Shown here piece after piece: positions 5,363-64,000 of a DNA stretch of 64,000 bases. The position numbers and the translations under genes were made by a program. Position 1 is the first letter of the stretch. Each line of letters starts with the position of its first letter. The stretch is from Candidatus Multivoradales bacterium (GTDB lineage Bacteria; Acidobacteriota; Thermoanaerobaculia; Multivoradales; JAHEKO01), in assembly GCA_965248055.1 (NCBI GenBank), contig CBDFIJ010000004.1, positions 1,756,299 through 1,820,298 on the forward strand, written 5' to 3'. The notes under the pieces are model-generated. The model made no database searches, was not told where the DNA came from, and worked only from the letters and a program-made list of their open reading frames with translations.

Positions 5363-5437
5363 TGGCTGGGAGGCAGGGATTCGAACCCCGATTCTACGGG
5401 TCAGAGCCGTATGTCCTACCATTGAACGACCTCCCAA
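5363..5437 (-). tRNA. tRNA-Gln, anticodon CTG
   Basis: The reverse complement folds as a cloverleaf: acceptor UGGGAGG/CCUCCCA plus G and CCA, D-arm AGUGGUAG-like, anticodon stem UACGG/CCGUA with loop CUCUGAC, and T-loop GGTTCGAATCC. It matches bacterial tRNA-Gln, which starts UGGGG and ends CCCCAGCCA. Confidence 0.9.
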
Positions 5438-38077: not shown

Positions 38078-39688
38078 ATGACGAAGAGTCCATCAAAACC
38101 CCGCAAGAGAGCCCCCTATTGGTTGGCAGTGTTCGGCCTGGCGCCAATCTTATTTGCGCCCGTTCCAGCTTTTTTGCGATACCACGGCTGGTCTGTCCTC
38201 ACCATAGATGGACTTGTCCTGGGTCTCATCTGTTTCGCAACTGCCGCATTTTTGTTTCTTATACCTGGCACTCGACGACGCCTATCGTTGAGCGGTGTTT
38301 ACGCTCTCGCGACTCTCTTTTTTTTCGACTTCCAGTTTCAAGCTCTTACCGGTTGGATCACTCTTGCCGGAGCCTTCGGCCTTGTTTTCACAGTCTGTTT
38401 CGGGCTGTTTGAAAAACTTCCGCAATTGACCACCTTTGTCTTCGGCTTGATGAGTCTTTTGGCTTTGTTCTCAGTTCCTAATAGTGACCATCGCGCTGTC
38501 GCTGGGGACCCAAACCTGCCACCGATCGTTTACTTGATCGTCGATGAGCACCTCGGAGTTGGCGGAATTCCAGCACTGGGTCGAGGTCCGGAAATCCAAG
38601 AAATGTTGCGCGATGCGTACATCCAACGGGGATTTAGGATCTACGAAAATGCATACTCTCTCCACGATATGACCCAACACTCCATTGCCTCCATCCTCAA
38701 CGGCTCGGACCGATCCGACGGGTTGGTTGAACCGGGACAGACCTCGAAGTGGAAGGTGACGAAGTCCCGTTTATTGAAACGTTGGGCCGACCAGGGTTAC
38801 CGGATCAATGTCTACCAATCAGACGCGCTCAACCTTTGCGATCTGCGAGAGGTAGAAATCGATTCCTGCTACACCTACAGCGTTTGGAGCCTGACCGGAA
38901 TCCTGGAAGGCTTGCCGTGGTATTCCCGGGAGCGGACCACTAGTGTCCTGTTGGCGATGGCGAACAGATCGCAGATCTTCTCCAAAGCGCGTAGTCAATA
39001 TAACAAGTTCGCGGAGCGTTCTCCGTCACTACCCGAGTGGCCCATTCGTGCTCGACCCCCAGGACCTCTGGCGATTCTTTCAGCCACCAAGGCCCTCCGC
39101 CAAGACTTGGCAAGGCAACCTAGGGGCCATGTCTTTCTTGCTCACTTGCTCCATCCACACTTTCCTTATGTCTACAACCAAGACTGCAGTGTTAAGCCAA
39201 AAGACGAATGGACTGCGCCGAAATGGAACAGGAAGGGCCGGATGCGTGACATGCGCAAAATTAGAGAAGATAACTACCCTGCTTACTTCGATCAGTTGGA
39301 GTGCGCCACGGTGATGGTAAACAAGTTGATTGATGAGATCGGAGAGCAGCCGGAGTTCCACGACGCAACGTTGATCGTTCATGGCGACCATGGCTCCCGT
39401 ATTTGGGTCAAAAAACCACTCACCTATAACAGACCAAGCGAACAAGACCTTATCGATAGCTTTTCCACCCACTTGGCGATCCGGGGCCCAGGCGTTACGC
39501 CTGGCGCCAACCTTCAGCCGGTGTCTGTCAACCAGGCAATCGCCAAGCACTGGGGTCTTCCTCTAAGACTTGAAGATAAGCCCGGGCTGTACGCAAGGCC
39601 GAACCGGAACCAGTTTCCAAGACCCAAGCTTGCTCTACCAGAAATCTGGCGTGACTCAATCACCGATACAATGGATCAGCCAGACTAA
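38078..39688 (+). CDS. Membrane enzyme paralog A: five transmembrane helices plus an alkaline-phosphatase-superfamily (LtaS/EptA/sulfatase-like) catalytic domain
   Basis: Five N-terminal transmembrane helices. Then 'PIVYLIVDEH' (metal-site acidic residue), 'YENAYSLHDMTQHS' (candidate Thr nucleophile about 45 residues later), 'LLHPHFPY' and 'IVHGDHGSR' (Asp-His metal site). Confidence 0.7.
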   Translation: MTKSPSKPRKRAPYWLAVFGLAPILFAPVPAFLRYHGWSVLTIDGLVLGLICFATAAFLFLIPGTRRRLSLSGVYALATLFFFDFQFQALTGWITLAGAFGLVFTVCFGLFEKLPQLTTFVFGLMSLLALFSVPNSDHRAVAGDPNLPPIVYLIVDEHLGVGGIPALGRGPEIQEMLRDAYIQRGFRIYENAYSLHDMTQHSIASILNGSDRSDGLVEPGQTSKWKVTKSRLLKRWADQGYRINVYQSDALNLCDLREVEIDSCYTYSVWSLTGILEGLPWYSRERTTSVLLAMANRSQIFSKARSQYNKFAERSPSLPEWPIRARPPGPLAILSATKALRQDLARQPRGHVFLAHLLHPHFPYVYNQDCSVKPKDEWTAPKWNRKGRMRDMRKIREDNYPAYFDQLECATVMVNKLIDEIGEQPEFHDATLIVHGDHGSRIWVKKPLTYNRPSEQDLIDSFSTHLAIRGPGVTPGANLQPVSVNQAIAKHWGLPLRLEDKPGLYARPNRNQFPRPKLALPEIWRDSITDTMDQPD

Positions 39689-40021: not shown

Positions 40022-40121
40022 ACGCCTGCAAGCGATTGTCGCGAAGCGATCCGTATCTGTGGCAAAATCGAGCGGTTCGGATATTTTGAATAGGGACGCC
40101 CCCGTCCTTGGGATCGCGATT

Positions 40122-41750
40122 ATGACGAAAATGCCATCAATGGCCATAAGGCAGGCACCCTTTAGGTTGGCAGTCGTTGGCCTAGCGCTGATTCTCTTTG
40201 CCCCGATTCCAGCCTTTCTGAGGCATCAAGAGTGGTCCGCGATCAATATCGACGGGGCCATCCTAGGACTACTTTGTCTCGCGATAGCCACACTGGTATT
40301 TCTTATCCCTGGAAGTCGGGGGCGAATCGGATTGAGCACTATCTATGCTCTAGCCATTCTCTGGTTCGTAGATTTTCAATTCCAAATGTTTTCGAGTTGG
40401 ATAGCCTTCGCTGCAGGGTCTGTCGTTGCTTTCGCAGTCTGCGTTGCCCTGTTTGAAAAGCTATCGGAACTAGCAACATTCGTCTTCGGCTTGATGATTC
40501 TTCTGTCATTGATTCCTGTGCGCAGCCGTGACCGCGAGGTAGGCGTAAGCGATCAACGGCTCCCACCGATTGTCTATTTAATCCTTGACGAACACATTGG
40601 GGTTGCAGGTGTTCCCGCTATCGAGCGTGGCCCCGAGATTCAAGAATTATTGCGTCGCGAGTACCTCCAGCGCGGGTTTCGAATCTACGAGAACGCGTAT
40701 TCACTACACGACTTCACTCACCATTCGCTCGCTTCGGTTCTCAACGCCAGTGACCGCAGCGATGGTTTCCTTCTGCCAGGAAAAAAAACCTGGCAGTGGG
40801 GAGTCCGCAAATCTAGTGTGTTGAGACACTGGGTAGATCAAGGATACCGCCTCCGAATCTATCAATCAGACTGGCTGGATCTATGTAACTTGGAGGGAAT
40901 CAAAGTGGAATCTTGCTTCACCTACAGTGCCTGGAGTATTAGCAATCTGGTGGAATATCCGTGGAATTCGGTTGAACGAACTAGTGGGATTCTTGTCGTC
41001 ATAGCGAATCGCTCACAAATTCTTCTTAAGATTCGCGGTTGGTATGACAGCCTTTCCAAGCAGGGTTTTGGAGGCTTGAACCTTCCAATGTGGCCGGTAC
41101 GAGCTAGCCGACCGGGTGCCTTGGTCGTCCGTTCCGCGACCAAGGTATTGCAACACGATCTTGAGTCCAATCCGCGGGGAACCGTTTTTCTCGCTCACCT
41201 GCTACATCCTCATTCTCCTTATGTATATGACGCCAACTGTGGGGTAAAGCCCAAAGGTGATTGGGCGGCACCATCGCTAGATCGAAAAGGTAAGGTAAGG
41301 GCTCTGCGGGAGAGCCGGACGACTCACTATCGTGATTACTTCGATCAGCTCGAGTGTCTAACCACCCAGATAGGAGAGCTAATTGATGCGATTGGTGAAA
41401 GTACCGAGTTGAGAGATGCGACTGTTCTAATCCACGGTGATCATGGGTCTCGTCTTTGGGTCAAACCACCGCGTACCTACAACAAGCCTACTGAAAGAGA
41501 CTTGTTGGATACTTTCTCAACTTTTCTTGCTGTTCGCGGCCCAATGATCCAGCCCGAACTCAATATTGAACCTGTACCCGTAAATCAAATTGTCGCCGAA
41601 CTCGCGGAGGTTCCGTTTGTTCTTCATGACGGTCCCGCGCCATACTCACGACCGAACTACTATGATCCTCCTCGTCACAAGTTGCCCCTTCCGTCGATCT
41701 GGCGGACATCGAACAACACACCTAAGGTCCGTCCGAAAACCCTCAACTAG
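40122..41750 (+). CDS. Membrane enzyme paralog B, same architecture as A (about 55 to 60% identical)
   Basis: Same motifs: 'PIVYLILDEH', 'YENAYSLHDFTHHS', 'LLHPHSPY' and 'LIHGDHGSR'. The start was chosen at MTKMPS, because the sequence gggatcgcgattATGACGAA is conserved with paralog A. Confidence 0.7.
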   Translation: MTKMPSMAIRQAPFRLAVVGLALILFAPIPAFLRHQEWSAINIDGAILGLLCLAIATLVFLIPGSRGRIGLSTIYALAILWFVDFQFQMFSSWIAFAAGSVVAFAVCVALFEKLSELATFVFGLMILLSLIPVRSRDREVGVSDQRLPPIVYLILDEHIGVAGVPAIERGPEIQELLRREYLQRGFRIYENAYSLHDFTHHSLASVLNASDRSDGFLLPGKKTWQWGVRKSSVLRHWVDQGYRLRIYQSDWLDLCNLEGIKVESCFTYSAWSISNLVEYPWNSVERTSGILVVIANRSQILLKIRGWYDSLSKQGFGGLNLPMWPVRASRPGALVVRSATKVLQHDLESNPRGTVFLAHLLHPHSPYVYDANCGVKPKGDWAAPSLDRKGKVRALRESRTTHYRDYFDQLECLTTQIGELIDAIGESTELRDATVLIHGDHGSRLWVKPPRTYNKPTERDLLDTFSTFLAVRGPMIQPELNIEPVPVNQIVAELAEVPFVLHDGPAPYSRPNYYDPPRHKLPLPSIWRTSNNTPKVRPKTLN

Positions 41751-46496: not shown

Positions 46497-48068
46497 TTGA
46501 CTGACAGCAAACGTAGCTCCACTTCACCGAAGATCTCCTTCTGGACAGCTGTTCTCGCGCTAGCCCTGATTCTTTTCGCTGTCTTCCCACCGTTTTTTCG
46601 TCACCATGGCTTGTCGTTTCTAAGCCTGGAGCTTGTCGCTTTCGCCTTGATCTGCGGTTTTTTATCTAGCGTACTTCACCTCATCCCCGCGACTAGAACG
46701 CGGTGGTTTTCAAGCACAATCTTGGGTGCTGCCTTGACTCTGCTTATCGACATTCAATTCGGTTCGATCTCAAGCGAGCTTTCTCTGATCGGACATCTCT
46801 TCGTCACAACGGGTGTTTGCGTACTTTTGTTTCCCCATGCTCATCGAGTGCTCACGGCGTTCGCTGGAGTTCTTATCCTGCTTTCTCCAACCGTGGCCAC
46901 CAAAAGCACCAGCACTCCCAGTCACCACCAGATCGAACGAGACACTTCGTTGCCGCCGATTGTCTATCTGATTCTCGATGAACACATCGGCATAGGAGGT
47001 ATCTCCAATCAGTTTGTACAAGAGCGCACCAAGATTCTCGGTGAATACATACAACGGGGATTCCTAGTCTACGAAAACGCTTACTCACTGCACGACATGA
47101 CTCTTGCATCCATGGGATCTCTTCTTAATGCCCGCCCGACAGTTGAGCATGCGATCGAAGGCAATCGTCAAGAAGGCTTCTCTTTATCGAAATCTGTACT
47201 CTTTCGGTATTGGGCAGATCTAGGATATCGCTTCTCTATCTATCAATCTGAGTATCTTGATTACTGCTCTGCAGCAAAACCGGCGGTCGACCTCTGCATA
47301 ACCTACGATCAATACATTGGGCTCGACGTTCTGAAACCTCTTGAGACCATCGACTACACGGTCACCGCACTATTCTCAAGATCCGAGATTGCTATGAAAG
47401 GAAGGGTCCGTTACAACTTTCTACGTAACAAGGTACCCCAGTCGATACGGCCGCCACGATTGCCTCCGCCGCCAACCGGCTCTTGGGCGGCAAGATCTCG
47501 TGTCGCATTGGATGAGATGCGCAAACAGGCGCTTGTCGACCCAGAAGGAAGAGTATTCTTTGCACACCTACTCCATCCGCACAAACCGCACATCTATGAC
47601 CAGGAGTGCCGCCCAAGGAGGTCGACGAGGTCGTCGATCCTTTCGTCTTCGCATTACATGGACCAAGTGTTGTGCATTACAAAGCAGCTCGGCGAAACCC
47701 TTGACGAATTGCTCTCGCTCCCTTCATTCAAAGATGCTGTGGTAGTTGTCCACGGAGATCACGGTCCTAGGCTTATGGGGGATCTTGCGCTCAATGGTGA
47801 CAAGGAGATCCCACAGGAATTCATCATTGATAGGTTTTCAACATTCCTTGCGATAAAGACACCTGAAGTTGCTTCTGGTATAACTCGGTTTCCCACTTCG
47901 ATCAACTCAGAAATTCCTGCAATTTGGTCTATACCCAACTCCGTACCCCACAAACCTATGCTTCAATTGACCCAAAACCTTATGACGGTTGAGTCACTGA
48001 CAGATCGGAAAGTGCAGGCCATCAACCTTCCGGATTTTTGGGGTTTATCGGTGTCCATGAAGCCTTGA
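46497..48068 (+). CDS. Membrane enzyme paralog C (about 35 to 40% identical to A and B), TTG start
   Basis: 'PIVYLILDEHIGIGG', 'YENAYSLHDMT', 'LLHPHKPH' and 'VVHGDHGPR'. RBS 'aggag' 8 nt before the TTG. Confidence 0.65.
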   Translation: MTDSKRSSTSPKISFWTAVLALALILFAVFPPFFRHHGLSFLSLELVAFALICGFLSSVLHLIPATRTRWFSSTILGAALTLLIDIQFGSISSELSLIGHLFVTTGVCVLLFPHAHRVLTAFAGVLILLSPTVATKSTSTPSHHQIERDTSLPPIVYLILDEHIGIGGISNQFVQERTKILGEYIQRGFLVYENAYSLHDMTLASMGSLLNARPTVEHAIEGNRQEGFSLSKSVLFRYWADLGYRFSIYQSEYLDYCSAAKPAVDLCITYDQYIGLDVLKPLETIDYTVTALFSRSEIAMKGRVRYNFLRNKVPQSIRPPRLPPPPTGSWAARSRVALDEMRKQALVDPEGRVFFAHLLHPHKPHIYDQECRPRRSTRSSILSSSHYMDQVLCITKQLGETLDELLSLPSFKDAVVVVHGDHGPRLMGDLALNGDKEIPQEFIIDRFSTFLAIKTPEVASGITRFPTSINSEIPAIWSIPNSVPHKPMLQLTQNLMTVESLTDRKVQAINLPDFWGLSVSMKP

Positions 48069-52783: not shown

Positions 52784-53758
52784 CTAACTTTCCTTCACCG
52801 TCATGGTTTCCGCTATCGAATTCACGGTGGGTTCCGGTTCAATCTTGGCGCGCGGATGACTCTTGCGATACACGTGTAGCAGCCGGTCGATATCGACATG
52901 GGTGTAGCGTTGCGTGGTGCTCAAGGAGGCGTGGCCCAACAACTCTTGAATGGTGCGCAAATCCGCGCCTGCTTCCAGCAAGTGAGTGGCAAAACTATGG
53001 CGCATGGTGTGAGGGTGGACTCCCCCAGCTAGCGACGAGGACTCCACATACTGATCGAGAATGCGCCGTACCGAGCGCGCTGTCAACCGCCCACCACGTT
53101 GATTGACGAAGACGCATTGATCATCGTCCCAAGGTCGGCCGGCTAGCACCTGCCATGCTTCCTGCCATTGGCGCAGAGTTTGCGCAGCCGGTTTGCCATA
53201 GGGGACCATGCGTTCCTTGCCACCTTTCCCCACCACCCGCAACGTCCTGCCTCCGGGCTCAAGATCTTTCCAGTTGAGGGAAACCAATTCGCCAACGCGT
53301 AGACCGGTGGCATAGAGCAACTCCAACATAGCTCGATCGCGCCGCGAAACAGGCAGATCCCCCTCGGGAGCCTCGAGCAGCACATTCATCTCAGCGGGTC
53401 GCAAATGGCGTGGCAACTTGCGTTCGCTACGTGGCGTCTTGATGGCTTCGGCTGGACTGGCCTCAAGCACCCCTTCGCGACAGGCAAAGCGAAACACCCC
53501 CTTGAGCGCTGACAAGGTCCGGCCCTGGCTGCTGCGAGCGTTTCCGGAAAGGGCCAAATGAGCCAGAAATGCCCGCAGCGCCATCGCGTCGACTTCCACC
53601 ACCTTGATCTCGGTCAGCTTCTTCTCAAAGTAGTCCCGAGATAGAAATTTCGACAATCGGCGCAGATCACCTTCGTAGGCACGAATGGTGTTTTCTGCCA
53701 GGCGGCGTTCTCCTGCCAAATAATCCAAATAGCGAAATACCAACCGGGGAAGATTCAT
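52784..53758 (-). CDS. xerC: Tyrosine site-specific recombinase XerC/XerD
   Basis: '...RRDRAMLELLYATGLRVGEL...HTMRHSFATHLLEAGADLRTIQELLGHASLSTTQRYTHV' carries the R-H-R-Y catalytic residues. The start was chosen at MNLPRL. Confidence 0.9.
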   Translation of the reverse strand: MNLPRLVFRYLDYLAGERRLAENTIRAYEGDLRRLSKFLSRDYFEKKLTEIKVVEVDAMALRAFLAHLALSGNARSSQGRTLSALKGVFRFACREGVLEASPAEAIKTPRSERKLPRHLRPAEMNVLLEAPEGDLPVSRRDRAMLELLYATGLRVGELVSLNWKDLEPGGRTLRVVGKGGKERMVPYGKPAAQTLRQWQEAWQVLAGRPWDDDQCVFVNQRGGRLTARSVRRILDQYVESSSLAGGVHPHTMRHSFATHLLEAGADLRTIQELLGHASLSTTQRYTHVDIDRLLHVYRKSHPRAKIEPEPTVNSIAETMTVKES

Positions 53759-55137
53759 GTTTGGACCGCTCGCACAGGTTGCTCGACAGCACTGTCCGTC
53801 TCCACCGCAAAATGGTAGGGCAGGCCGTTGGTCGCAGCCCACTGCGCCAGGTGCTGTCGGGCGCGGGCGGCATATGCCGGCCTTCGATCTCGCTTGCGCA
53901 ATCGCTGATTGAGCGCGGGAAACAGACCGAAGTTGATATTGGACGGCTGGTATCTCTGCGGTGAAGAAAGGGTCAGATGCCGCGCTAGAGCCCCGAGTGC
54001 GGTCTCATCAGGAATCAAAGGCAACCGCGTCCCGGCAAGCTCGGCTGCCAGATACAGGCCGACCGCCAGCCCGGTGGCGGACGATTCCAGATAGCCCTCG
54101 ACACCGGTGATCTGTCCGGCAAAGCGGATCTGTGGTTGCGCCTGCAGAGCATACCTGGGGCCAAGATGACGCGGTGCGTTGATGTAGGTGTTGCGATGCA
54201 CCTGCCCCATGCGCACAAACTCCGCCGACTCCAGCCCAGGGATCATCCGTAGCACGCGTTTCTGATCCCCCCACTTGATGCGGGTCTGAAACCCCACTAG
54301 GTTGAACTGGGTTCGGGCGACATCCTCGCGCCGCAACTGAACCACCGCGTAGGGCTTGGACTCACTATCCCAAACATCGTCCGGTGGCTCCAGTCCCACC
54401 GGTTTCATCGGGCCAAAACACAGCGTCTGCACTCCCCGGCGAGCGATCTCTTCCAGCGGCAAGCAACCCTCAAAAAAGAGCTTGGCCTCAAAGTTATGAA
54501 GTTCCGCAGTTTCAGCTCGTAATACAGCGTCAACAAACCGCTGGTAAAGATCCTGGTCCATCGGGCTATTCAGGTAGTCATCACCGTTGCCTTTACCGTA
54601 GCGCGAGCCCCAAAACATCTTCGACAGATCTAAAGACTCGGCGCTGACGATCGGCGCGATCGCGTCATAGAAATAGAGCGACTGCTCGCCCAGAAGCTCC
54701 CGCAATTGGCTGCTCAACGCTTCGCTGGTCAGTGGTCCGGTGGCGATCACCACCGGCCCGTCAGGAATCTCGGTCAGCTCTTCACGCCGCAGCGTGATCC
54801 GAGGATGATTATCGATCGCTGCAGTGACCTTCGCGGAAAATTGGTAGCGGTCCACCGCCAACGCCCCACCAGCTGCCACCGCTGATTGACGCGCCGTCGG
54901 AATCACCAGCGACCCCAACGCCTCCATCTCTCGCTTCAACAGCCCAGCAGGGTGGTTGGGATCATCTGAGCGCAGTGAATTCGAACACACCAACTCCGCC
55001 AAATCCCCGGTCTTGTGTGCTGGCGTCGACCGCTCGGGTCGCATCTCCCACAGATCCACCTCAAACCCGCGCTCAGCAACCTGAAACGCGCACTCCGTCC
55101 CGGCCAACCCGCCGCCGATAATAGTGAGATCAGGCAT
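53755..55137 (-). CDS. trmFO: Methylenetetrahydrofolate-tRNA-(uracil54-C5)-methyltransferase TrmFO
   Basis: 'LTIIGGGLAGTECA' FAD motif and the GidA-related TrmFO core. About 460 aa. Confidence 0.85.
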   Translation of the reverse strand: MPDLTIIGGGLAGTECAFQVAERGFEVDLWEMRPERSTPAHKTGDLAELVCSNSLRSDDPNHPAGLLKREMEALGSLVIPTARQSAVAAGGALAVDRYQFSAKVTAAIDNHPRITLRREELTEIPDGPVVIATGPLTSEALSSQLRELLGEQSLYFYDAIAPIVSAESLDLSKMFWGSRYGKGNGDDYLNSPMDQDLYQRFVDAVLRAETAELHNFEAKLFFEGCLPLEEIARRGVQTLCFGPMKPVGLEPPDDVWDSESKPYAVVQLRREDVARTQFNLVGFQTRIKWGDQKRVLRMIPGLESAEFVRMGQVHRNTYINAPRHLGPRYALQAQPQIRFAGQITGVEGYLESSATGLAVGLYLAAELAGTRLPLIPDETALGALARHLTLSSPQRYQPSNINFGLFPALNQRLRKRDRRPAYAARARQHLAQWAATNGLPYHFAVETDSAVEQPVRAVQT

Positions 55138-55194
55138 ATCGGGATTATGCCACCCGAGTGACTTACCCCTTGACACCAGAGACTGTAGGTATTG

Positions 55195-57774
55195 CTACCG
55201 CTTGCGCGCTTTGCGCTTCGGGGCCTTACCGCGTTCGGCGAGAATCGCCACCGCTTGTTCTTTGGTCATGGTCTCAGCGTCATCGCCTTTGCGCAGCGAT
55301 GCGTTGACCTCACCGTTGGTTAGGTAGGGGCCGAAACGACCGTCGAGCAGGCGCACGGAAAGCTTGTCGTGCTCACCGAAGTCGTTGAGCACTTTGGCTG
55401 TTGCCCGGCCGCGGGTCTTGGGTTGAGCCAGGATGACCAGAGCACGGTCGAGTTCGACAGTGTAGATGTCGTCTTCGACAGACAACGAGCGAGTTTCTTT
55501 GCCAGCTTTGAGATAGGGACCGTAGCGGCCTGAGGCCGCCACCACTTCTTCTTCTGTTTCCGGGTGGACTCCCAGGGTCCGGGGTAGCGAAAGCCACAGC
55601 AACGCATCGTCTAGGGTCACGCTGTCTTCGGTGCGGCCCTTGGGTAGGGATGCGCGCTTGGGCTTGGGTTCCTTAGTTCCTTTTTCTGGTGTTTCGCCCA
55701 ATTGCACGTAGGGCCCGAAACGACCGGTCGCCAGGTAAATCGGTTCTCCGTCCTGGTGCCCTAAGATCTGCGGCCCATCGCTCTGGGTTTCCAGAATCTC
55801 GCGCGCCATCTCGAGTGTCAGATCCGCCGGAGCAAGGCCATCGGGCAACGAAGCGCTTTGCTTGCCGTCACCTTCCCCACGCTGCAAGAACGGTCCGTAT
55901 CGACCAATTCTGACTACCACCGCTCGACCTTCTTCGTCTTCGCCCAGCTCCATGGCTGGGTAGTTGATGAGGTCGGTTTCTTTCTCCAGTCGAGCCTTCA
56001 AGCCCGGGTCGTTGGCGCCACCGAAGTAGAACCCATGTAAGTGATCCAGCCACGGGATCTGACCACTGGCAACATCGTCCAGGGACTGCTCCATAGTGGC
56101 GGTAAAACCCGTGTCAACGTAGTCTCGGAAATGCTTTTCCAACAACAAGGTTACGGCGTGAGCAGTGAAGGTCGGGACCAGGGCGTTGCCTTGTTTTTCG
56201 ACATAACCGCGCCGTTGGATGGTCTCGATAATCGGTGCATAGGTGGACGGTCGGCCGATCCCGAGTTCTTCCAGCAGTTTGACCAAGGTCGCCTCGGTGT
56301 AGCGGGCCGGCGGTTTGGTTTGCTTACCCACCGCGTCGACCAATTGCGGATCGATCGAGCCACCAATGGTCAACGAGGGCAGCAGGGATTCGTCATCTTC
56401 TGTGGAGCGTCCATAGGCGGCCATCCAGCCTGGAAAGTCAATCACCTGACCAGTGGCTTGAAAGACCGCTTCTTTGCCACCGGATTGAACCATTGGGTGC
56501 AAGGTCACTGCGGTCCGCGAGAGCTTGGCGTCGCTCATCTGGCTCGCCATCGTCCGGCGCCAAATCAAGTCGTAGAGTTTGAGTTCGTCATCCTGTAGGT
56601 GGGCTTTGAGGCTGTCTGGAGTGCGCTCCAAACTAGTGGGTCGAATCGCTTCATGGGCCTCTTGAGCGCCTTTGGATTTGGTCTTGTAGCGCCGCTCGCC
56701 AGTAGCGTAGTCCTTGCCGAAGTGACTACCGATGACCTTCTGTGCCTCAGCCAGGGCGCGCTCGGATAGAGTCATGGAGTCGGTTCGCATATAGGTAATG
56801 AGACCTTCATGTCCGCTGCCTAAATCGATCCCTTCATACAGCCTCTGAGCCGCCCGCATGGTGCGCGAAGCACCAAACCCCAGACGCCCGTTGGCTGCCT
56901 GCTGCAGGGAAGAGGTGGTAAACGGAGGCGATGGACGGCGGGTTACCGGCTTGGTTTCGACGTTGGCGACGGTCCAGGGCGTCGACCAGCCGAGCAACAA
57001 CTCGAGAGCTTCTCCCTCTTGCTTGAGCCACAAACGTTTCTCAGGGTTCTTGAGCTCGCCGGACTCGGGATCAAAATCACGACCGGTTGCTAGCGGCTCA
57101 CCAGCCACCGACTTCATCTGCGCCTGAAACGAAATTCCGTCCTTTTCGAGGGTGGCCTCCAAGGACCAGTATCCGGCAGTCATAAATCGGTGGCGATCAC
57201 GCTCGCGTAAAACGCAAAGCCGTACCGCCACACTTTGTACCCGACCCGCCGACAATCCGCGCTGTACTTTCTTCCACAAGACCGGCGAGAGCTCGTAGCC
57301 ATACAACCGATCAATGATGCGCCGATTCTCTTGCGCCCGGATCAGTTGGTAGTCGAGTTCTCGCGGGTTCTCCAGCGCCTCACGCACCGCGTCTTCGGTG
57401 ATCTCGTGAAAAGCAATGCGCTTGACCGGAACTTTGGGCTTGAGCACTTCGACAATATGCCAGCCAATCGATTCGCCTTCGCGATCTTCATCAGTCGCCA
57501 GAATCAATTCGTCGGCGCCAACTAATGCCTTCTTGAGCGTTTGGATGTGTTTCTTGCGATCCGCAGAGATGACATAGATCGGATCAAACTTGTGGTCGAC
57601 GTTGACCCCGAGTCGAGCCCATGGCTCGCCTTTGTGGCGTGCAGGAATCTGGCTGGCACTACCCGGAAGGTCCCGAATATGGCCATAGCTGGCTTCGACC
57701 CGGTATTCGGATCCCAGAAACCGGGCGAGAGTCTTGGCTTTGGCTGGTGATTCAACAACAACAAGTGACGGCAT
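55195..57774 (-). CDS. topA: DNA topoisomerase I
   Basis: Toprim 'LVVVESPAKAKT', catalytic Tyr region 'GLITYMRTDS', and a C-terminal Lys-rich tail. Confidence 0.95.
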   Translation of the reverse strand: MPSLVVVESPAKAKTLARFLGSEYRVEASYGHIRDLPGSASQIPARHKGEPWARLGVNVDHKFDPIYVISADRKKHIQTLKKALVGADELILATDEDREGESIGWHIVEVLKPKVPVKRIAFHEITEDAVREALENPRELDYQLIRAQENRRIIDRLYGYELSPVLWKKVQRGLSAGRVQSVAVRLCVLRERDRHRFMTAGYWSLEATLEKDGISFQAQMKSVAGEPLATGRDFDPESGELKNPEKRLWLKQEGEALELLLGWSTPWTVANVETKPVTRRPSPPFTTSSLQQAANGRLGFGASRTMRAAQRLYEGIDLGSGHEGLITYMRTDSMTLSERALAEAQKVIGSHFGKDYATGERRYKTKSKGAQEAHEAIRPTSLERTPDSLKAHLQDDELKLYDLIWRRTMASQMSDAKLSRTAVTLHPMVQSGGKEAVFQATGQVIDFPGWMAAYGRSTEDDESLLPSLTIGGSIDPQLVDAVGKQTKPPARYTEATLVKLLEELGIGRPSTYAPIIETIQRRGYVEKQGNALVPTFTAHAVTLLLEKHFRDYVDTGFTATMEQSLDDVASGQIPWLDHLHGFYFGGANDPGLKARLEKETDLINYPAMELGEDEEGRAVVVRIGRYGPFLQRGEGDGKQSASLPDGLAPADLTLEMAREILETQSDGPQILGHQDGEPIYLATGRFGPYVQLGETPEKGTKEPKPKRASLPKGRTEDSVTLDDALLWLSLPRTLGVHPETEEEVVAASGRYGPYLKAGKETRSLSVEDDIYTVELDRALVILAQPKTRGRATAKVLNDFGEHDKLSVRLLDGRFGPYLTNGEVNASLRKGDDAETMTKEQAVAILAERGKAPKRKARKR

Positions 57775-57894
57775 AAGTCGAGTAGCTCCACGGAGAGTAG
57801 ATTGGCAAAGCAGTGGTGATGGGCGAATAACAACGCATCGGCGCGGAACTCTCGGGGAAATCATCGCGTTCGTCAACCCATGGCACTCTCCGCG

Positions 57895-59013
57895 CTATCG
57901 CACCAAGCGCCCAAAACGATCTCCTGGTTGCCGACTGATCAAGCCCAATAGCTCCAACTTAGACAACTCCACCAGGAGTTCTTCTATGCGCCGCTCTAGG
58001 GCCTTAGAGAGTTGCTCCACAGATATCGATTCACCCAATGGCGGCAACGCTTCCCACAGTTTTCGGTCGACCTCTTTGGGGATCGCTGAGGAGGCGTCTT
58101 CGGGGAGCTGCAAGCCAGGGATAAAGTCGATCAGGTCCCGGGGTCGATGGGCCACGCCAGCTCCGTCTGAGATCAAGGCATGACAACCCTGAGATCTAAC
58201 ATCAAATATCGACCCGGGGACAGCAAAGACGTCTCGACCGAGATCGAGTGCGAGCCGGGCCGTGATCAGAGATCCAGAGCGAAAGGTCGCTCGCACGACC
58301 AGCACGCTTCGAGCTAGAGCAGAGATCAGATGGTTACGAATCGGGAAGTTGCGAGCCAGGGGTGGTGTTGCGATCGGAAACTGGCTGATCACCGCTCCTT
58401 GACCGGCAATCTGATCGGCCAAGGATCGATGGTGGCGCGGATAAGCGACATCGATACCGCACCCCAAGACCGCGACCGTCTTGCCAGAGGTTTCGAGGGC
58501 TCCTCGGTGCGCCGCACCATCAACTCCGGTCGCCATGCCCGACACCACGGTGGCTCCCGCAGAAGCGAGGCGACGTCCAAATCGCTTTGCTGCTTGGCGT
58601 CCATAGTCGCCGCACCGGCGTGAGCCGACGATCGCGATCGCTAACGTTGGATTCTGCAGACAGGTCGGTGGAAGGCTTCCTCTGACGTACAGCACCGGCG
58701 GAGGAAGCTCAAGGTCAAAAAAAATTGGAGGATAGCCACGGTCATTCCAGGTCAAGATCACGGCCTTGGCGCGATCCGCACCCACTCGTTGTTGTTTGGC
58801 GAGCGAGGCGGCTTTGTCTAAAGCCTGCTCTACTTGCGACCTGCCTTTGAATTGGTTCCAGGCATCGGAACGGAGAAGTTCCGGATCGGCGGCGATTTGG
58901 TAGATGCGATCCAGCGAGATCGACCTCAGGGTGTTGATCGCGATCAATTGATCATCGGACAGCGAGGCATTGGCCAGTAGGTCATCGGACTGCGGTTTAT
59001 CGGAATAATGCAT
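57895..59013 (-). CDS. dprA: DNA-processing protein DprA/Smf
   Basis: 'AIVGSRRCGDYG...VVSGMATGVDGAAHRGAL' is a Rossmann-like DprA core. Confidence 0.85.
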   Translation of the reverse strand: MHYSDKPQSDDLLANASLSDDQLIAINTLRSISLDRIYQIAADPELLRSDAWNQFKGRSQVEQALDKAASLAKQQRVGADRAKAVILTWNDRGYPPIFFDLELPPPVLYVRGSLPPTCLQNPTLAIAIVGSRRCGDYGRQAAKRFGRRLASAGATVVSGMATGVDGAAHRGALETSGKTVAVLGCGIDVAYPRHHRSLADQIAGQGAVISQFPIATPPLARNFPIRNHLISALARSVLVVRATFRSGSLITARLALDLGRDVFAVPGSIFDVRSQGCHALISDGAGVAHRPRDLIDFIPGLQLPEDASSAIPKEVDRKLWEALPPLGESISVEQLSKALERRIEELLVELSKLELLGLISRQPGDRFGRLVR

Positions 59014-59356
59014 CTTTCAAGGTTGGTCAGCGAGGGAGTCGTCCACACTAGGAGACGACCGCCTCTTAAGATGAGACGAAAAGCTCTACCGTGACCTTGC
59101 CGGCGGCGCAATATCAATAACCACAAGCGAAAACTTGAGGCACTGGGTGGCGTATTCAAGGTACGGCACCGCCCTTGCAGCCCCTCGGCCTGCCGACCGA
59201 GCGCTGGGGTTCCGGTTGGCTCAAACTAGATCTACGACAGTGATTGAAACAAGCCCATTGTCAAATTCGGCAGATTCACTGAACCATTTTCGTGTGATGC
59301 GCCCGTATATACTGCCGATGGGTAGTCTTTCGTCACGCACCTGGAGATTTTTTTCC

Positions 59357-59878
59357 ATGGGTAATTACCAATCTTGGCTCTTGGTCCGCAGGCTGGGAGC
59401 GCTTTTCGTTGTTGCGTTCTTAGCACTGCCGATCGGGATCCAAGCAAAACCGGTCGGTCAACTTGGGTTCGGCGCACAGATGGCGTCGCGCGGGCTGTGG
59501 AGCGAAGCCTTGTTTCGTTTTCGTCAGGCGGAAAAAAGCGACCCGGACAACCCGCGCATCCTCAACAACATCGCAGTCTCGCTTGAAGCTCTCGGCCTCT
59601 ACGATGAAGCCCTGGAGCAATATCGCAAAGCGGTCGAGGTAGCGCCCAATTTGGATCACGCCAAGAAAAACTACGCTCGTTTCGTCGACTTCTATCAAGC
59701 CTTCAAAGGCGGTGAGGTCGAGTTATCCGACGACGAAAACGCCGGTGCGCTAGCGGAAGCTGATCCGGAGGCGGCCCAAACAGCCGCGAGTGCTCAGGAA
59801 AGCGGCGAACCTACAGATGGCCAACAGGACGCTGAAGGCAAGCCGGGCAATCTATCGTTGGATGGGGACTTATCATGA
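59357..59878 (+). CDS. Secreted TPR-repeat protein
   Basis: The signal peptide begins at MGNYQSW. There are TPR motifs ('ALFRFRQAEKSDPDNPRILNNIAVSLEALGLYDEALEQYRKAVEVAP'). The 3' end overlaps the next gene. Confidence 0.6.
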   Translation: MGNYQSWLLVRRLGALFVVAFLALPIGIQAKPVGQLGFGAQMASRGLWSEALFRFRQAEKSDPDNPRILNNIAVSLEALGLYDEALEQYRKAVEVAPNLDHAKKNYARFVDFYQAFKGGEVELSDDENAGALAEADPEAAQTAASAQESGEPTDGQQDAEGKPGNLSLDGDLS

Positions 59879-60588
59879 CCATTCGCAGACCAGGTCGGAA
59901 CCGCTCGCTGTTGTTGGGGACGCTTGCGCTCATTGTAGGAAGTATGGATTTTCCACTGGCAGCCTCGGAAGTTGAAGTCCATATCGTGCTACCCGTGCGG
60001 GCGCGCATTGCCCTGGAGAACCGAGGCACGGTGACCCTTGCACCCTGTTTGATCTTTGATGAAGAAGGCGAAGAGAACGCCTACGATATTGATCTGGTCA
60101 AAGAGTTCGAACGCTACTTCAGTCGCTTGCTCGGACGTAAGACCGACCTCAAGTTCATCGAATCGGGACCAATCGACTACCCATCTTTTGATTTGGGACA
60201 ACTGGGCAATGACTCTGATTTTTGGGCCTTCGTGGGTTCACAGACACAAGCTGACTTGGTGCTCGCTTGTAGCTTGGATTTTGATGTTCAAGAGCGAAGC
60301 GGATACCGTTCTCAACCTTACGTCTCTCCTTACGACGGACGAACCTACGAGCGTCAAGTCTTGATTGAAAACACCGGATTTGAATTCGATATTGTGCTCC
60401 AGGTTTATGAAGGCGCCACTGGCGAACAGCTCTATACCGAGAACTTCAAAGATTTTCGAGAGTTTCCCACTGACAGCGCCGACCCCATCACCGGAATGTT
60501 CGCCAATTTGCAGGCGTTAGAAGATCGCATCGCTGGAATTTTTGTCCAGCGAGAGGTTCCCGCCAGCCGCACCCTCTACACTGAATGA
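59875..60588 (+). CDS. Secreted hypothetical protein
   Basis: Signal-like N-terminus. It is translationally coupled on both sides (ATGA overlaps). Confidence 0.55.
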   Translation: MTIRRPGRNRSLLLGTLALIVGSMDFPLAASEVEVHIVLPVRARIALENRGTVTLAPCLIFDEEGEENAYDIDLVKEFERYFSRLLGRKTDLKFIESGPIDYPSFDLGQLGNDSDFWAFVGSQTQADLVLACSLDFDVQERSGYRSQPYVSPYDGRTYERQVLIENTGFEFDIVLQVYEGATGEQLYTENFKDFREFPTDSADPITGMFANLQALEDRIAGIFVQREVPASRTLYTE

Positions 60589-63557
60589 CAGCTCCCCTCT
60601 CGATCGAAAAAGGAGTCACCGTGACTAAGAACCTTCGCTTGATGAACCTTCGTTTGCCTCTGGCCTGCGCGCTCTTGGCGCTGATGGCGGTTTCTCCAGT
60701 TACTGCCCAATTCGGCAAGAACTCGAAGATCCAATATCGAGATTTCAACTGGAAGATCTACCATGCCACCCATTTCGATGTTTATTACTACGAGGACGAG
60801 AAACACCTTCTCGACCGGGTGGTGTCGTTCGCAGAATCAGCCTACGACCATCTGTCGCGCGAGTTCGACTACCAGATCCCAAAACCGACGCCGCTGATCT
60901 TTTACCGCACCCACAATGAATTCCAACAGAACAACATCATCCTCAACTACATTCCGGAAGGACTGGGTGCATTCGCCAGTTCGGTGCGTAATCGCATGGT
61001 GCTACCGGTGGACATGCCGGATGACCAGCTGCTCAACCTCATCCTTCACGAACTGACCCACATTTTTCAGTACCACATCCTCTATGGAGGTAGCGCCGGG
61101 AAAGGCATTACCTCTTCCGCGCCCCAGTACATCAACGAAGGCATGGCGAGCTACTACGCCGCCGACGAAGACGCCCGCGACAAGATGTATCTGCGCGATG
61201 CAGTGGTCAACGACAACATTCCCGAGATCGGTGGTGATTCTCAGCCGCAAGGGTTCTTCGCCTATCGCTACGGCCACGCCTTTTTTGACTACGTAGAAGA
61301 AACCTACGGCAAAGAAGGTGTACTCGCTTTCTTACTAGAACTACGCACCACGCTCGGCTCGCGCGTTGGGCCCGCCATTGAACGTGCTTTTACCGAGAAG
61401 CCTGAGGATTTTTCCGCCGACTTTCGTCGCTGGTTGCGGCGTAAGTACTTGCCAGAGTTAGTGGTCACCGGTGAGCCCGGCGACTTTGGTCGCCGTTTTC
61501 GTCAAGAAAAGGGCAAGGCTCCGGTCAACGCGGCTTCACCGATCGCCTCTCCTTCCGGAGACCTGATCGCGACCTTTGTCCGGGATCGTGGCGAAGTCGA
61601 CATCGTGCTCTACGACACTAAGACCCGCGAGAAGGTCAAGAACCTCACCAAGGGGTTTACCACCGACGTTCAGTACTTCATCGCCCAAGAGATCGGCGAA
61701 GTGCCGCGTAAGATGGGTCGAGACTTGGCTTTTTCGCCGGACGGCAATCAGTTGGCAGCCTTTGTGCGCAAGGAAGACTCGCGCAAACTAGCCTTCGTCG
61801 ACGTACTGCGCGGTGGCGTGCGCCGGCTTATCGACGTAGGCGTTGACCAAGCGTTGAATCCTGCTTGGTCTCCAGACGGAACCAAGATCGCTTTCGCCGG
61901 TCATCGCGATGGTCAGTTCGACATCTTCGAGTACGACTTGAATGCCGACGTAGTCACCAATTTGACCAACGACAAGGTCTACGACGGCGCGCCATCTTAC
62001 AGCCCCGACGGTTCGTCGTTGGTGTTTTCCTCCGCAGCAGGCGACACCATTCGCATCTACCGCATTGATCGCAGCGACCCATCGGTGCGTTATCCGCTCA
62101 CCGACGGAGAGGACAATGCCACCGATCCAATTTACTCGCCCGACGGCAGCCGACTGTATTTCACCTCCGACTACACCGGCGCCAACAACATCTTTTCCAA
62201 AGACTTGGCGACCGGAGAGACGGTACAGCACACCAACTCGGTCACCGGCAGCTATATGCCGGTTCCGTTGTCCAATCCAGCCGGGGATGACCGTCTGGTG
62301 TTCACCGCTTTCTGGCGTGGTCGGCATGATCTTTACCTGCTGGATGAGGCGAAGCCTATCTCTGACCCCATCATCATCGTCGAACCGGATCAGCAAGCTC
62401 CCGAGGGAGCTGGTCTCCGGCTCACCGAGCTACCGGAATTTGAACCGACCATTGAGGCCGCGCTAGACGACGCCAATATTGGTCCCTACAAGCGCAAGTT
62501 CTTTATCGAAGGCTTCTCAGGAACGTCGATCGCGGTAACCGACGACCAACGCTATATCGGTACCGTCGCCGTCTCGCTGTCCGACTTTCTTGGCGACCAT
62601 CGCATTTTGGCCCAATTTCAAACCGTGGATTCGTTCCGGAATTTCAACATCGTCTACGCGGACCTCAAGAAGAGACTGCAAAAGCAAGTGAACCTGTTTG
62701 ACAACCGGACTTTTCGAGTCGTTGGTCGCGATCAGTTTGGCGGTCGCGCGATCCAACAAGAAGTTCGCTACGAAACCTTGGGGCTGTTTGGCTCGTTGGT
62801 CTATCCGTTGGACTTCAACCATCGAATCGAGGGCGGAGTTGGATATATCCAACGGAAATTCGAACTGGCGCTGTCGGAATTTGAAAGAAATCCGTTCGGC
62901 TTACCAGGGGAGACGCTGGATACCCTCACACTCTTCGAGGATGATTTCCCTTTCGTTCAAACCAAGTTTGTCGGGGATAGCTCGGTTTGGAGCGGTTTTG
63001 GTCCGATCAGTGGTCGTCGTTACTCGCTACAAGCAACTTACGCTTCCGACACTGGAGGCAGCGGTGACTTGTTCACCACCTTCGAAGCTGATTTCCGCCA
63101 GTACGTCCCCCTGGGACGTCGGGGGTCCTTTGCTATTCGTGGCTACGGCTTCACAAGTGATGGCAACCAACCCGGCATCACCTACTTTGGGGGTCTGGAT
63201 ACCGTGCGTGGGTTCAACTTTCGCAGTATCTCGGGCGACAACGGTTTTTATACCAACTTCGAGCTGCGCTTTCCGTTTATCGATTACTTGATTACTCCCT
63301 CTAGGGCTTTGTCTTTCCAGGGAATCCAAGGAGTCGTCTTTCTAGATATGGGCGGTGCTTGGTTTGATGGCGTTCAGGATTTCAACTTCTACGACTCCGA
63401 GAACAGTCGACTTGACGACGGAGTTGCCTCTTATGGGTTTGGACTTTCGACCCGAGTCTTCGGCTATCCCGTCAACTGGAATTTCGCCAAGCAATGGAAT
63501 TTCGACACTTCCGCCGATGGCTACGAAACTTCCTTCTGGATCGGTTTCCGCTTTTAG
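60585..63557 (+). CDS. 990-aa outer-membrane fusion protein: gluzincin-type metallopeptidase, TolB-like beta-propeller and an Omp85/surface-antigen-like C-terminal barrel
   Basis: Signal peptide, then 'HELTHIFQYH...NEGMASYY' (HExxH plus a downstream Glu). There are at least four 'SPDG(S/T/N)' propeller-blade repeats, and the C-terminus ends '...SFWIGFRF'. Confidence 0.75.
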   Translation: MTAPLSIEKGVTVTKNLRLMNLRLPLACALLALMAVSPVTAQFGKNSKIQYRDFNWKIYHATHFDVYYYEDEKHLLDRVVSFAESAYDHLSREFDYQIPKPTPLIFYRTHNEFQQNNIILNYIPEGLGAFASSVRNRMVLPVDMPDDQLLNLILHELTHIFQYHILYGGSAGKGITSSAPQYINEGMASYYAADEDARDKMYLRDAVVNDNIPEIGGDSQPQGFFAYRYGHAFFDYVEETYGKEGVLAFLLELRTTLGSRVGPAIERAFTEKPEDFSADFRRWLRRKYLPELVVTGEPGDFGRRFRQEKGKAPVNAASPIASPSGDLIATFVRDRGEVDIVLYDTKTREKVKNLTKGFTTDVQYFIAQEIGEVPRKMGRDLAFSPDGNQLAAFVRKEDSRKLAFVDVLRGGVRRLIDVGVDQALNPAWSPDGTKIAFAGHRDGQFDIFEYDLNADVVTNLTNDKVYDGAPSYSPDGSSLVFSSAAGDTIRIYRIDRSDPSVRYPLTDGEDNATDPIYSPDGSRLYFTSDYTGANNIFSKDLATGETVQHTNSVTGSYMPVPLSNPAGDDRLVFTAFWRGRHDLYLLDEAKPISDPIIIVEPDQQAPEGAGLRLTELPEFEPTIEAALDDANIGPYKRKFFIEGFSGTSIAVTDDQRYIGTVAVSLSDFLGDHRILAQFQTVDSFRNFNIVYADLKKRLQKQVNLFDNRTFRVVGRDQFGGRAIQQEVRYETLGLFGSLVYPLDFNHRIEGGVGYIQRKFELALSEFERNPFGLPGETLDTLTLFEDDFPFVQTKFVGDSSVWSGFGPISGRRYSLQATYASDTGGSGDLFTTFEADFRQYVPLGRRGSFAIRGYGFTSDGNQPGITYFGGLDTVRGFNFRSISGDNGFYTNFELRFPFIDYLITPSRALSFQGIQGVVFLDMGGAWFDGVQDFNFYDSENSRLDDGVASYGFGLSTRVFGYPVNWNFAKQWNFDTSADGYETSFWIGFRF

Positions 63558-63568
63558 CTGGAGCGTCA

Positions 63569-64000
63569 TTGAAGATTGAGGTTTTAGGCGCCTATGGAGG
63601 AGTCGGCCCAGGTATGCGACCGACTTCTTTGTTGATTGAAGACAGAGTCGTGTTGGACGCTGGGTCGATTGCCAGAAGTATCGATTTCGATCGCCAACAG
63701 AGAATCGAAGCGGTAGTTCTCACCCATGCTCACGCCGATCACATCTGCGAACTACCTTTTTTCCTAGAGAACATTGCCTCCGCTCTACGTCCTCCGGTAC
63801 GCATCTACGGCTCGGTCGCAACCTTGTATGCCGTCCGCCGTCATTTGATCAACAATCACATCTGGCCCGATCTAGACGCCTCAACCATCCGACCCAGGAT
63901 GATGGAGTTTGTTGAAATAGAAACCGAGCAGCCCTTCGTCGCTGGCGGCGTGCAATGGACGCCTTTCGCGGTCGATCACACGGTACCCACTTTCGGTTAC
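63569..64000 (+). CDS. MBL-fold metallo-hydrolase; the 3' end lies beyond the window
   Basis: TTG start 'LKIEVLGAYGG', then 'VVLTHAHADHICELPF' (HxHxDH motif). The ORF runs off the window end. Confidence 0.7.
   Translation, partial: MKIEVLGAYGGVGPGMRPTSLLIEDRVVLDAGSIARSIDFDRQQRIEAVVLTHAHADHICELPFFLENIASALRPPVRIYGSVATLYAVRRHLINNHIWPDLDASTIRPRMMEFVEIETEQPFVAGGVQWTPFAVDHTVPTFGY

Follow-up and report, generated by a model that had tools for sequence, protein, structure and literature searches.

A predicted zinc peptidase, TolB-like propeller and Omp85 barrel fusion and its conserved gene cassette in Thermoanaerobaculia

A three-gene cassette strictly conserved in Thermoanaerobaculia

We analyzed a stretch of 64,000 nucleotides (nt), hereafter the window, from the genome of a Candidatus Multivoradales bacterium (Acidobacteriota, Thermoanaerobaculia; assembly GCA_965248055.1, contig CBDFIJ010000004.1, positions 1,756,299 to 1,820,298). 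Close to the end of the window, three consecutive open reading frames (ORFs) lie on the + strand at 59135..59878, 59875..60588 and 60585..63557. The last of these, which encodes a protein of 990 amino acids (aa) with predicted peptidase, propeller and outer-membrane barrel domains, is the subject of this work. Gene 1 encodes a small secreted tetratricopeptide repeat (TPR) protein. Its sensible start is the ATG at 59357, which yields a 173-aa product (59357..59878, + strand) with a hydrophobic N-terminal signal sequence. Gene 2 (59875..60588, + strand) encodes a 237-aa secreted protein with a predicted alpha/beta fold similar to that of LptE, PelC, CsgG and the N-terminal domain of TolB (TolB-N). 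Gene 3 (60585..63557, + strand) encodes the fusion of peptidase, propeller and Omp85 barrel, which is 990 aa long over the whole ORF and 978 aa from a likelier GTG start at 60621.

The junction between genes 1 and 2 is an ATGA overlap, as is the junction between genes 2 and 3 if the latter starts at ATG 60585. Within the annotated gene 3 ORF, we also found an AAGGAG placed five bases before GTG 60621 (window positions 60610-60623). A start at this GTG would leave a signal peptide of 29 aa, a length typical among the homologues, and would separate genes 2 and 3 by a spacer of 32 nt with no overlap. Because of the AAGGAG spacing and the match in signal-peptide length, we favor this start. The AAGGAG is probably the true ribosome-binding site and GTG 60621 the real beginning of gene 3, and the ATG at 60585 that overlaps the upstream stop may go unused.

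A genome scan returned at least 592 related stretches, and the window proteins were run by tblastn against the best 80 of these (hereafter loci), all of which are metagenome-assembled genomes of Thermoanaerobaculia/Acidobacteriota. A gene 2 homologue lies directly upstream of the gene 3 homologue on the same strand in 79/80 loci, and in 74/80 a gene 1 homologue precedes it with position and strand unchanged. Every miss, including all six for gene 1, coincides with a contig end. The pairing of the TPR gene and the 237-aa gene is also found around a relative that is 41% identical to the gene 3 product (locus L082). Across Thermoanaerobaculia, the three genes form a strictly conserved cassette, with gene 3 as its last core member.

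A preliminary description of this DNA had proposed an operon of three translationally coupled genes. The operon is supported by the strictly conserved order of the three genes; the coupling of genes 2 and 3 has become doubtful, given GTG 60621 and the 32-nt gap. We infer co-transcription of genes 1-3 as the most likely reading. Scanning for promoters and terminators gave sites no more frequent than in shuffled sequence, and the boundaries of the operon therefore rest on spacing and synteny.

In the window, a trmFO-topA-dprA block on the - strand (53755-59013) is divergent from the operon. A divergent dprA is present in 70/80 loci, and the cassette therefore sits in a stable core-genome neighborhood. 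A mobile or defense element was considered as a candidate and rejected, as the neighbors are housekeeping genes and syntenic.

Architecture and conservation of the 990-aa protein

In our model, the gene 3 product is built from a signal peptide, a clan-MA zinc-peptidase domain with an HExxH+E site, a six-bladed TolB-like beta-propeller, a linker of about 40 aa and a 16-strand BamA-like barrel. The model was computed with AlphaFold2 (AF2) from 41 homologues and has a mean predicted local distance difference test score (pLDDT) of 81.4 and a predicted template modeling score (pTM) of 0.77. The signal peptide (60585..60707, + strand), which has low pLDDT, is predicted to be cleaved after ...SPVTA and before Q42. 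All of the homologues begin with hydrophobic N-termini of 20-45 aa, and in most of them this segment ends in AxA-Q.

The predicted peptidase domain, of the gluzincin type, covers aa ~45-305 (60717..61499, + strand) and is modeled over aa 56-294 as an alpha/beta plus helical domain. The sequence HELTH (61047..61061, + strand) provides a HExxH zinc-binding and catalytic motif (H155, E156, H159) within helix 146-167. The second motif, NEGMASYY (61134..61157, + strand), begins at aa 184 on helix 181-192, which is the next but one after the HExxH helix, with a short helix at 171-176 between them. Its glutamate, E185, lies 26 residues past H159 and is the candidate third zinc ligand. In the AF2 model, the HExxH motif and the candidate Glu ligand thus occupy two different helices, the Glu on the later one, as is expected for clan MA. 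Weak matches to clan-MA families span aa 90-265 of the window protein, and BSP and DUF6782 match in the same place. Among the N-terminal domains of 13 family members, Peptidase_MA_2 matches 13/13 (best 7e-9), Peptidase_M9 10/13, BSP 12/13 and DUF6782 11/13. Peptidase_MA_2 is also recorded as a strong match in distant relatives, and some homologues are annotated "collagenase".

Behind the peptidase domain lies a six-bladed TolB-like (PD40) propeller at aa ~315-599 (61527..62381, + strand), where the AF2 model places 24 strands, corresponding to six four-stranded blades. The repeats, which have a period of ~45 aa, are visible in the protein sequence through SPSG (aa 322) and four copies of SPDG (aa 384, 429, 473 and 518). 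The window protein matches PD40 at E 1.6e-20, above the cutoff, and the TolB propeller model at E 1.8e-35 over aa 393-587. The Pfam families Tricorn_N, Tricorn_2nd and DPPIV_N match the propeller region as well. When the model was compared with the PDB by Foldseek, TolB was among the top-ranked matches along with BamA barrels, and TolB-Pal complexes were among the matches. The closest solved relative of the propeller is TolB.

The remainder of the protein, aa ~639-990 (62499..63554, + strand), is predicted to form an Omp85/BamA-like outer-membrane barrel. The AF2 model has 16 long strands over aa 639-986 and a long loop (aa 860-885) between strands 11 and 12. The top PDB matches found by Foldseek are BamA barrels at probability 1.0 (8sqa_A, E 7e-12), and the TM scores normalized to barrel-only BamA chains are 0.63 for 7r1v_A and 0.60 for 5or1. 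The lid-lock signatures of Omp85 proteins are (L/M/V)RG(F/Y/W) and FxDxG (PMC11358297). Both have counterparts here: GGLDTVRGF (63189..63215, + strand), with VRGF at aa 874-877, falls in the long loop as the loop-6 motif, and FLDMGG (63339..63356, + strand), with FLDMG at aa 919-923, is the strand-13 FxDxG motif. The protein ends in WIGFRF (aa 985-990; 63537..63554, + strand), an aromatic terminus of the beta-signal type. ShlB (PF03865) scores 25.2 bits against a cutoff of 22.7 in the window protein, with Omp85-type matches extending over aa 729-990. PF01103 did not match the window protein in our own search and is recorded for many homologues. Family searches of the window protein found no POTRA domain, and in the AF2 model nothing but the ~40-aa linker separates the propeller from the first strand of the barrel.

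We found more than 120 full-length homologues at 50-79% identity. Among 41 close homologues, the residues of the predicted active site (H155, E156, H159, E185 and the adjacent G186) and those of the barrel motifs and terminus (R875, G876, F919, D921, G987 and F990) are invariant in 41/41. To reach further, a profile of the peptidase domain was run against 1.84 billion cluster representatives, which gave 4387 proteins at E <= 1e-3 and 730 (50%-identity clusters) at E <= 1e-30. Among the best 150 profile matches, 77 are at least 900 aa long, and in nearly all of these 77 the domain stands right behind the signal peptide. We aligned these 77 full-length representatives, which are 24-47% identical to the window protein, together with the window protein itself (n=78). 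In this distant set, H155, E156, H159, E185 and G186 are identical in 78/78. The loop-6 arginine R875 is likewise kept in 78/78 and G876 in 71/78, the FxDxG motif is retained at F919 (72/78), D921 (71/78) and G923 (69/78), G987 is present in 66/78, and 74/78 end in F, Y or W. Given this near-complete conservation, the protease chemistry and the Omp85-specific features of the barrel both appear to be under selection. Since the catalytic residues (HExxH+E) are invariant, the peptidase is most likely catalytically active.

These results agree with the preliminary description on the three parts of the protein. Its gluzincin active site, composed of HELTH and NEGMASYY, is borne out by the clan-MA family matches, by the placement of the motif residues on helices in the AF2 model and by their invariance in relatives. 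Its TolB-type propeller of SPDG blades is recovered through the PD40 and TolB matches and as a six-bladed structure with TolB as the best match. Its Omp85-like barrel with an aromatic WIGFRF end corresponds to the last ~350 aa, with BamA matches and both signature motifs, and the structure prediction that it had suggested as a check for a 16-strand barrel gives 16 long strands. It had also held that known Omp85 proteins carry POTRA domains and that the design was therefore unusual. This did not survive, as a subfamily without POTRA domains, WD40-Omp85, has been on record since 2014 (PMC4104836).

In that study, Heinz and Lithgow split the Omp85/TpsB superfamily into ten bacterial subfamilies, one of which, WD40-Omp85, combines PF01103 with PF07676 repeats and has no POTRA domains (PMC4104836). 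Their Table S3 lists Phyre2 matches of WD40-Omp85 members to BamA/TamA for the barrel and to TolB for the propeller, and its "best aminopeptidase hit" column names M1 aminopeptidases, a collagenase or tricorn (PMC4104836). The main text reads the subfamily only as a BamA-BamB-like fusion and discusses no protease (PMC4104836). A 2024 paper mentions Omp85 subfamilies with "divergent WD40 and peptidase domains" (PMC11358297). The three-part design of the window protein is shared with WD40-Omp85, a likeness drawn from the described architecture. The architecture is therefore not new, and by its design the window protein is a member of an already catalogued Omp85 subfamily. What is new here are the strictly conserved partner genes and their folds, the tamB/tamAB linkage in other phyla described below and the family-wide invariance of the catalytic site. 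Neither the cassette with TPR and LptE-like partners nor the tamB/tamAB linkage is described in the 2014 paper (PMC4104836).

Comparison with characterized proteins shows how each end of the fusion departs from its relatives. BamA and TamA share the 16-strand barrel, the loop-6 and FxDxG motifs and the aromatic C-terminus with the window protein. In contrast to them, it has an N-terminal enzyme and propeller and no POTRA, and scores far below the BamA/Omp85 equivalog cutoffs; a BamA/TamA orthologue was rejected for the want of POTRA domains. With TolB it has the six-bladed PD40 propeller in common. However, the TolB model TIGR02800 scores 122.7 against a cutoff of 343 and its match covers the propeller only, the N-terminal domain of TolB is absent from the chain (a protein of related fold is encoded by the upstream gene 2), and in the window protein the propeller shares its chain with a peptidase and a membrane barrel. 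Orthology to TolB was rejected because the N-terminal domain is missing and the score is below the cutoff. PlpD, a patatin-like Omp85 protein, is the only studied enzyme-Omp85 fusion and a case in which the Omp85 scaffold is reused for a function other than insertion (PMC11116518). Its enzyme domain, long assumed to be secreted, is exclusively periplasmic (Hanson et al. 2024; PMC11116518). PlpD and the window protein share an N-terminal hydrolytic enzyme domain and a C-terminal Omp85 barrel. They differ in that PlpD is a homodimer with a lipase and POTRA, whereas the window protein combines a metallopeptidase with a propeller and lacks POTRA. A type V-d autotransporter of the PlpD/FplA kind was rejected, with no patatin or POTRA match.

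Partner proteins, gene neighborhoods and possible functions

The gene 1 product contains 2-3 TPR repeats, matching TPR_11, TPR_2 and TPR_1 at E 5e-10 to 2e-8, and an acidic low-complexity tail. A lipoprotein-type Cys follows the signal sequence in roughly 53-57 of 74 gene 1 homologues, about three quarters, as counted with a lenient script pattern and four cases judged by eye. The copy in the window has a plain signal peptide without such a Cys, and the plain secreted form occurs in about 17 loci too. As gene 1 alternates between lipoprotein and plain secreted forms, membrane attachment is not fixed across the class.

The gene 2 family has 328 members, and the window protein has no Pfam or NCBIfam match. 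Its model (pLDDT 78) has the alpha/beta fold of LptE, PelC, CsgG, LpoB and TolB-N, although sequence identity to proteins of this fold is only 8-18%. The fold assignment agrees with weak matches to FlgT_M in 31/38 gene 2 family members. LptE, PelC and CsgG, with which gene 2 shares its fold, are lipoproteins that partner barrels. Unlike the LptE and PelC lipoproteins, the window copy of gene 2 and most of its homologues have no lipobox Cys and carry signal peptides with AxA-type ends.

Beyond the 80 loci, several gene 3 orthologues have other neighbors. One representative with 30% identity (P0352) belongs to a clade named by NCBI as Candidatus Krumholzibacteriota and Latescibacterota. We examined five loci from this clade (L081, L083, L086, L087 and L088). 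In all five, the orthologue is the next gene after tamB and has the same orientation, and as little as 6-33 nt separates the two genes. The tamA gene precedes tamB in 4/5 of these loci, and a gene for a UvrD/PcrA-type helicase lies downstream of the orthologue in 5/5. It is possible that the orthologue is the third gene of a TAM operon in Krumholzibacteriota/Latescibacterota. In one further lineage, the orthologue is found among genes for SLT, BacA and two M23 peptidases, next to yajC, and in another there are no obvious partner genes around it.

Our preferred reading, to which we give about an even chance, is that the gene 3 product is a periplasm-facing zinc peptidase, anchored in the outer membrane and gated by its propeller, that is tied to outer-membrane biogenesis or quality control. 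From its signal peptide and its aromatic C-terminal signal, we expect Sec export and BAM-dependent insertion of the protein. In 16-strand Omp85 barrels, both termini are on the periplasmic side. Since this is so, and since the enzyme domain of PlpD is periplasmic, the peptidase and propeller would most likely be suspended on the periplasmic side of the outer membrane. The preliminary description had suggested that the protein might be a processing or quality-control machine for surface proteins. The linkage to tamB/tamAB makes a role in outer-membrane biogenesis plausible.

Several known enzymes offer analogies for how such a protein might work. In tricorn, dipeptidyl peptidase IV (DPP-IV) and prolyl oligopeptidase (POP), a propeller controls substrate access. 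These are serine peptidases and not membrane barrels, in difference to the window protein. Its propeller probably keeps out everything but unfolded chains or peptides, in the manner of tricorn, DPP-IV and POP-type enzymes, or else binds a partner, as TolB does. The TPR (lipo)protein of gene 1 and the gene 2 protein probably join the barrel protein as subunits of one outer-membrane complex. More speculatively, outer-membrane assembly may supply the substrates in the form of its clients or by-products, for example beta-barrel proteins or lipoproteins that have stalled or misfolded. BepA is a soluble periplasmic HExxH protease of family M48 that has a TPR module, works at the BAM complex and degrades stalled outer-membrane proteins. 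BepA differs in its M48 family, its lack of a propeller and in not being fused to a barrel, so that the comparison is one of analogy only. It is tempting to speculate that the gene 3 product might be a fused analogue of BAM-BepA and that, in the phyla of the FCB (Fibrobacteres, Chlorobi and Bacteroidetes) group, it might act beside TamA/TamB. The tamB/tamAB linkage is the only gene context that speaks for this speculation.

A number of observations weigh against the reading as a periplasmic peptidase of outer-membrane quality control. The window protein scores 22.5-25.6 bits with Peptidase_MA_2, below the cutoff of 32.4, and is below the cutoffs of Omp85_fam (E 3.9e-5, 23.3 vs 200) and of the BamA model TIGR03303 (E 8e-4, 17.9 vs 297). 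Hidden Markov model profiles of the peptidase third and of the barrel third each gave nothing significant among PDB sequences. The best relevant match of the peptidase-third profile was a cold-active aminopeptidase (E 0.25). A weak BamA match of the barrel-third profile (E 0.41) aligns VRG with LRG and FLDMGG with FADYGG, an alignment of motifs only. The neighborhoods vary by clade, from TPR and LptE-like genes to tamB/tamAB in FCB phyla, cell-wall genes or none obvious, and no single partner system is therefore universal. The periplasmic topology is one that we infer, nothing in the evidence points to a substrate, and in the literature we found no experimental study of any family member.

A more elaborate form of the quality-control reading would make the three products a self-contained machine of the outer membrane. 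The lateral seam of the barrel would capture the beta-signal of stalled or misassembled barrels or of TAM clients and feed them via the propeller to the peptidase, while the TPR and LptE-like proteins would regulate or dock, and in Krumholzibacteriota/Latescibacterota the orthologue would be a third component beside TamA and TamB. Taken as a whole, we regard this scheme as unlikely.

Two other explanations seem to us more doubtful still, and about equally so. In the first, the protein is a surface-displayed, autotransporter-like protease, whose barrel exports the peptidase and propeller for nutrition or for the remodeling of surface proteins. Surface display was raised for "Metallo" Omp85-enzyme fusions by analogy with the original model of PlpD (PMC4104836), and the passenger of PlpD has since been shown to be periplasmic (PMC11116518). 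The "collagenase" annotations and the Peptidase_M9 matches in 10/13 family members would suit such an enzyme, and a TonB-dependent receptor and secreted hydrolase-like genes in the window fit a scavenging lifestyle. However, the family behaves as a syntenic core gene by dprA/topA and not as a variable secreted-enzyme gene, and neither a POTRA nor a linker like those of type V-d proteins is present. Propellers of the TolB type and partners resembling LptE or PelC belong to the periplasm, and the tamB/tamAB linkage points to envelope biogenesis.

In the second, the protein is a variant beta-barrel insertase, a "BamA-BamB fusion" whose barrel assembles or translocates outer-membrane proteins, with the propeller as a BamB-like scaffold and the peptidase in a secondary role, chaperone-like or in maturation. 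This is the interpretation given in the 2014 study (PMC4104836), and the retention of the lid-lock motifs, of a Gly four residues from the C-terminus and of the aromatic terminus would be in keeping with it. The TPR lipoprotein partner recalls BamD, and the orthologues in FCB phyla are located behind tamB, which in 4/5 loci is itself preceded by tamA. Against this, the POTRA domains, which are the substrate handlers of BamA, TamA and TpsB, are absent, and the propeller is six-bladed and TolB-like, in contrast to the eight-bladed BamB (PMC11358297). HExxH+E is conserved without exception, which argues for proteolysis as a central and not a secondary function.

Least probable is a tether peptidase between outer membrane and cell wall, in which the propeller would dock on Pal- or OmpA-like proteins or on peptidoglycan peptides, the peptidase would trim during growth and division and the barrel would be an anchor: TolB, the closest solved relative of the propeller, binds Pal, gene 2 resembles both the TolB N-terminal domain and LpoB, and one distant orthologue lies among the SLT, BacA and two M23 genes, but that neighborhood occurs in one lineage only, no peptidoglycan-binding domain was detected in family searches of the window protein, and the Omp85 functional motifs are retained, which a passive anchor would not need.

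Returning to the preferred reading of a periplasmic peptidase in outer-membrane biogenesis or quality control, its interest lies in the place of Omp85 proteins as central machines of outer-membrane biogenesis, about which knowledge comes almost entirely from POTRA-bearing members. Here, a large family spread over several phyla keeps the Omp85 motifs together with a conserved protease site. The fixed three-gene cassette and the conserved position downstream of tamB in other phyla provide testable handles. Should assembly intermediates be its substrates, the protease would reveal how outer-membrane protein assembly is policed in bacteria without BepA-like systems, and would extend to a further case the finding from PlpD that the Omp85 scaffold can be reused for periplasmic enzymes.

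Adjacent and other genes in the window

A possible fourth gene (63569..64000, + strand) starts 11 nt past the gene 3 stop (TAG, 63555-63557) and is partial, as it runs off the window. Its predicted product resembles metallo-beta-lactamase-fold proteins and class-II cAMP phosphodiesterases, with the motif THAHADH and matches to Lactamase_B_2 (1.3e-10) and PDEase_II (1.7e-9). Of the 75 loci with downstream sequence, 34 have a same-strand homologue no more than 400 nt behind the gene 3 homologue. In about 17 more loci the homologue is one gene further off, and it is absent in the more distant group. Because it is adjacent in only 34/75 loci, we count the fourth gene as a looser neighbor than genes 1-3.

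In the locus of the 41%-identical relative (L082, 8179-11108, + strand), two same-strand genes encoding proteins of 765 aa and 211 aa, neither with a Pfam match, follow behind the barrel gene. They are joined by a 4-nt gap and an overlap and may be additional, lineage-specific members of the operon.

Rfam and tRNA scans gave no match in the operon region and a single one in the whole 64-kb window, a tRNA-Gln (CTG) at 5363-5436 (- strand). A 1138-aa protein encoded at 22921-26337 (- strand) combines DUF3857 with a transglutaminase-like core and many TPR repeats. Between 35772 and 48068, a gene for a TonB-dependent receptor (35772-37970) is followed by three sulfatase paralogues (38078-39688, 40059-41750 and 46497-48068), which together may form a cluster for the uptake or degradation of a substrate.

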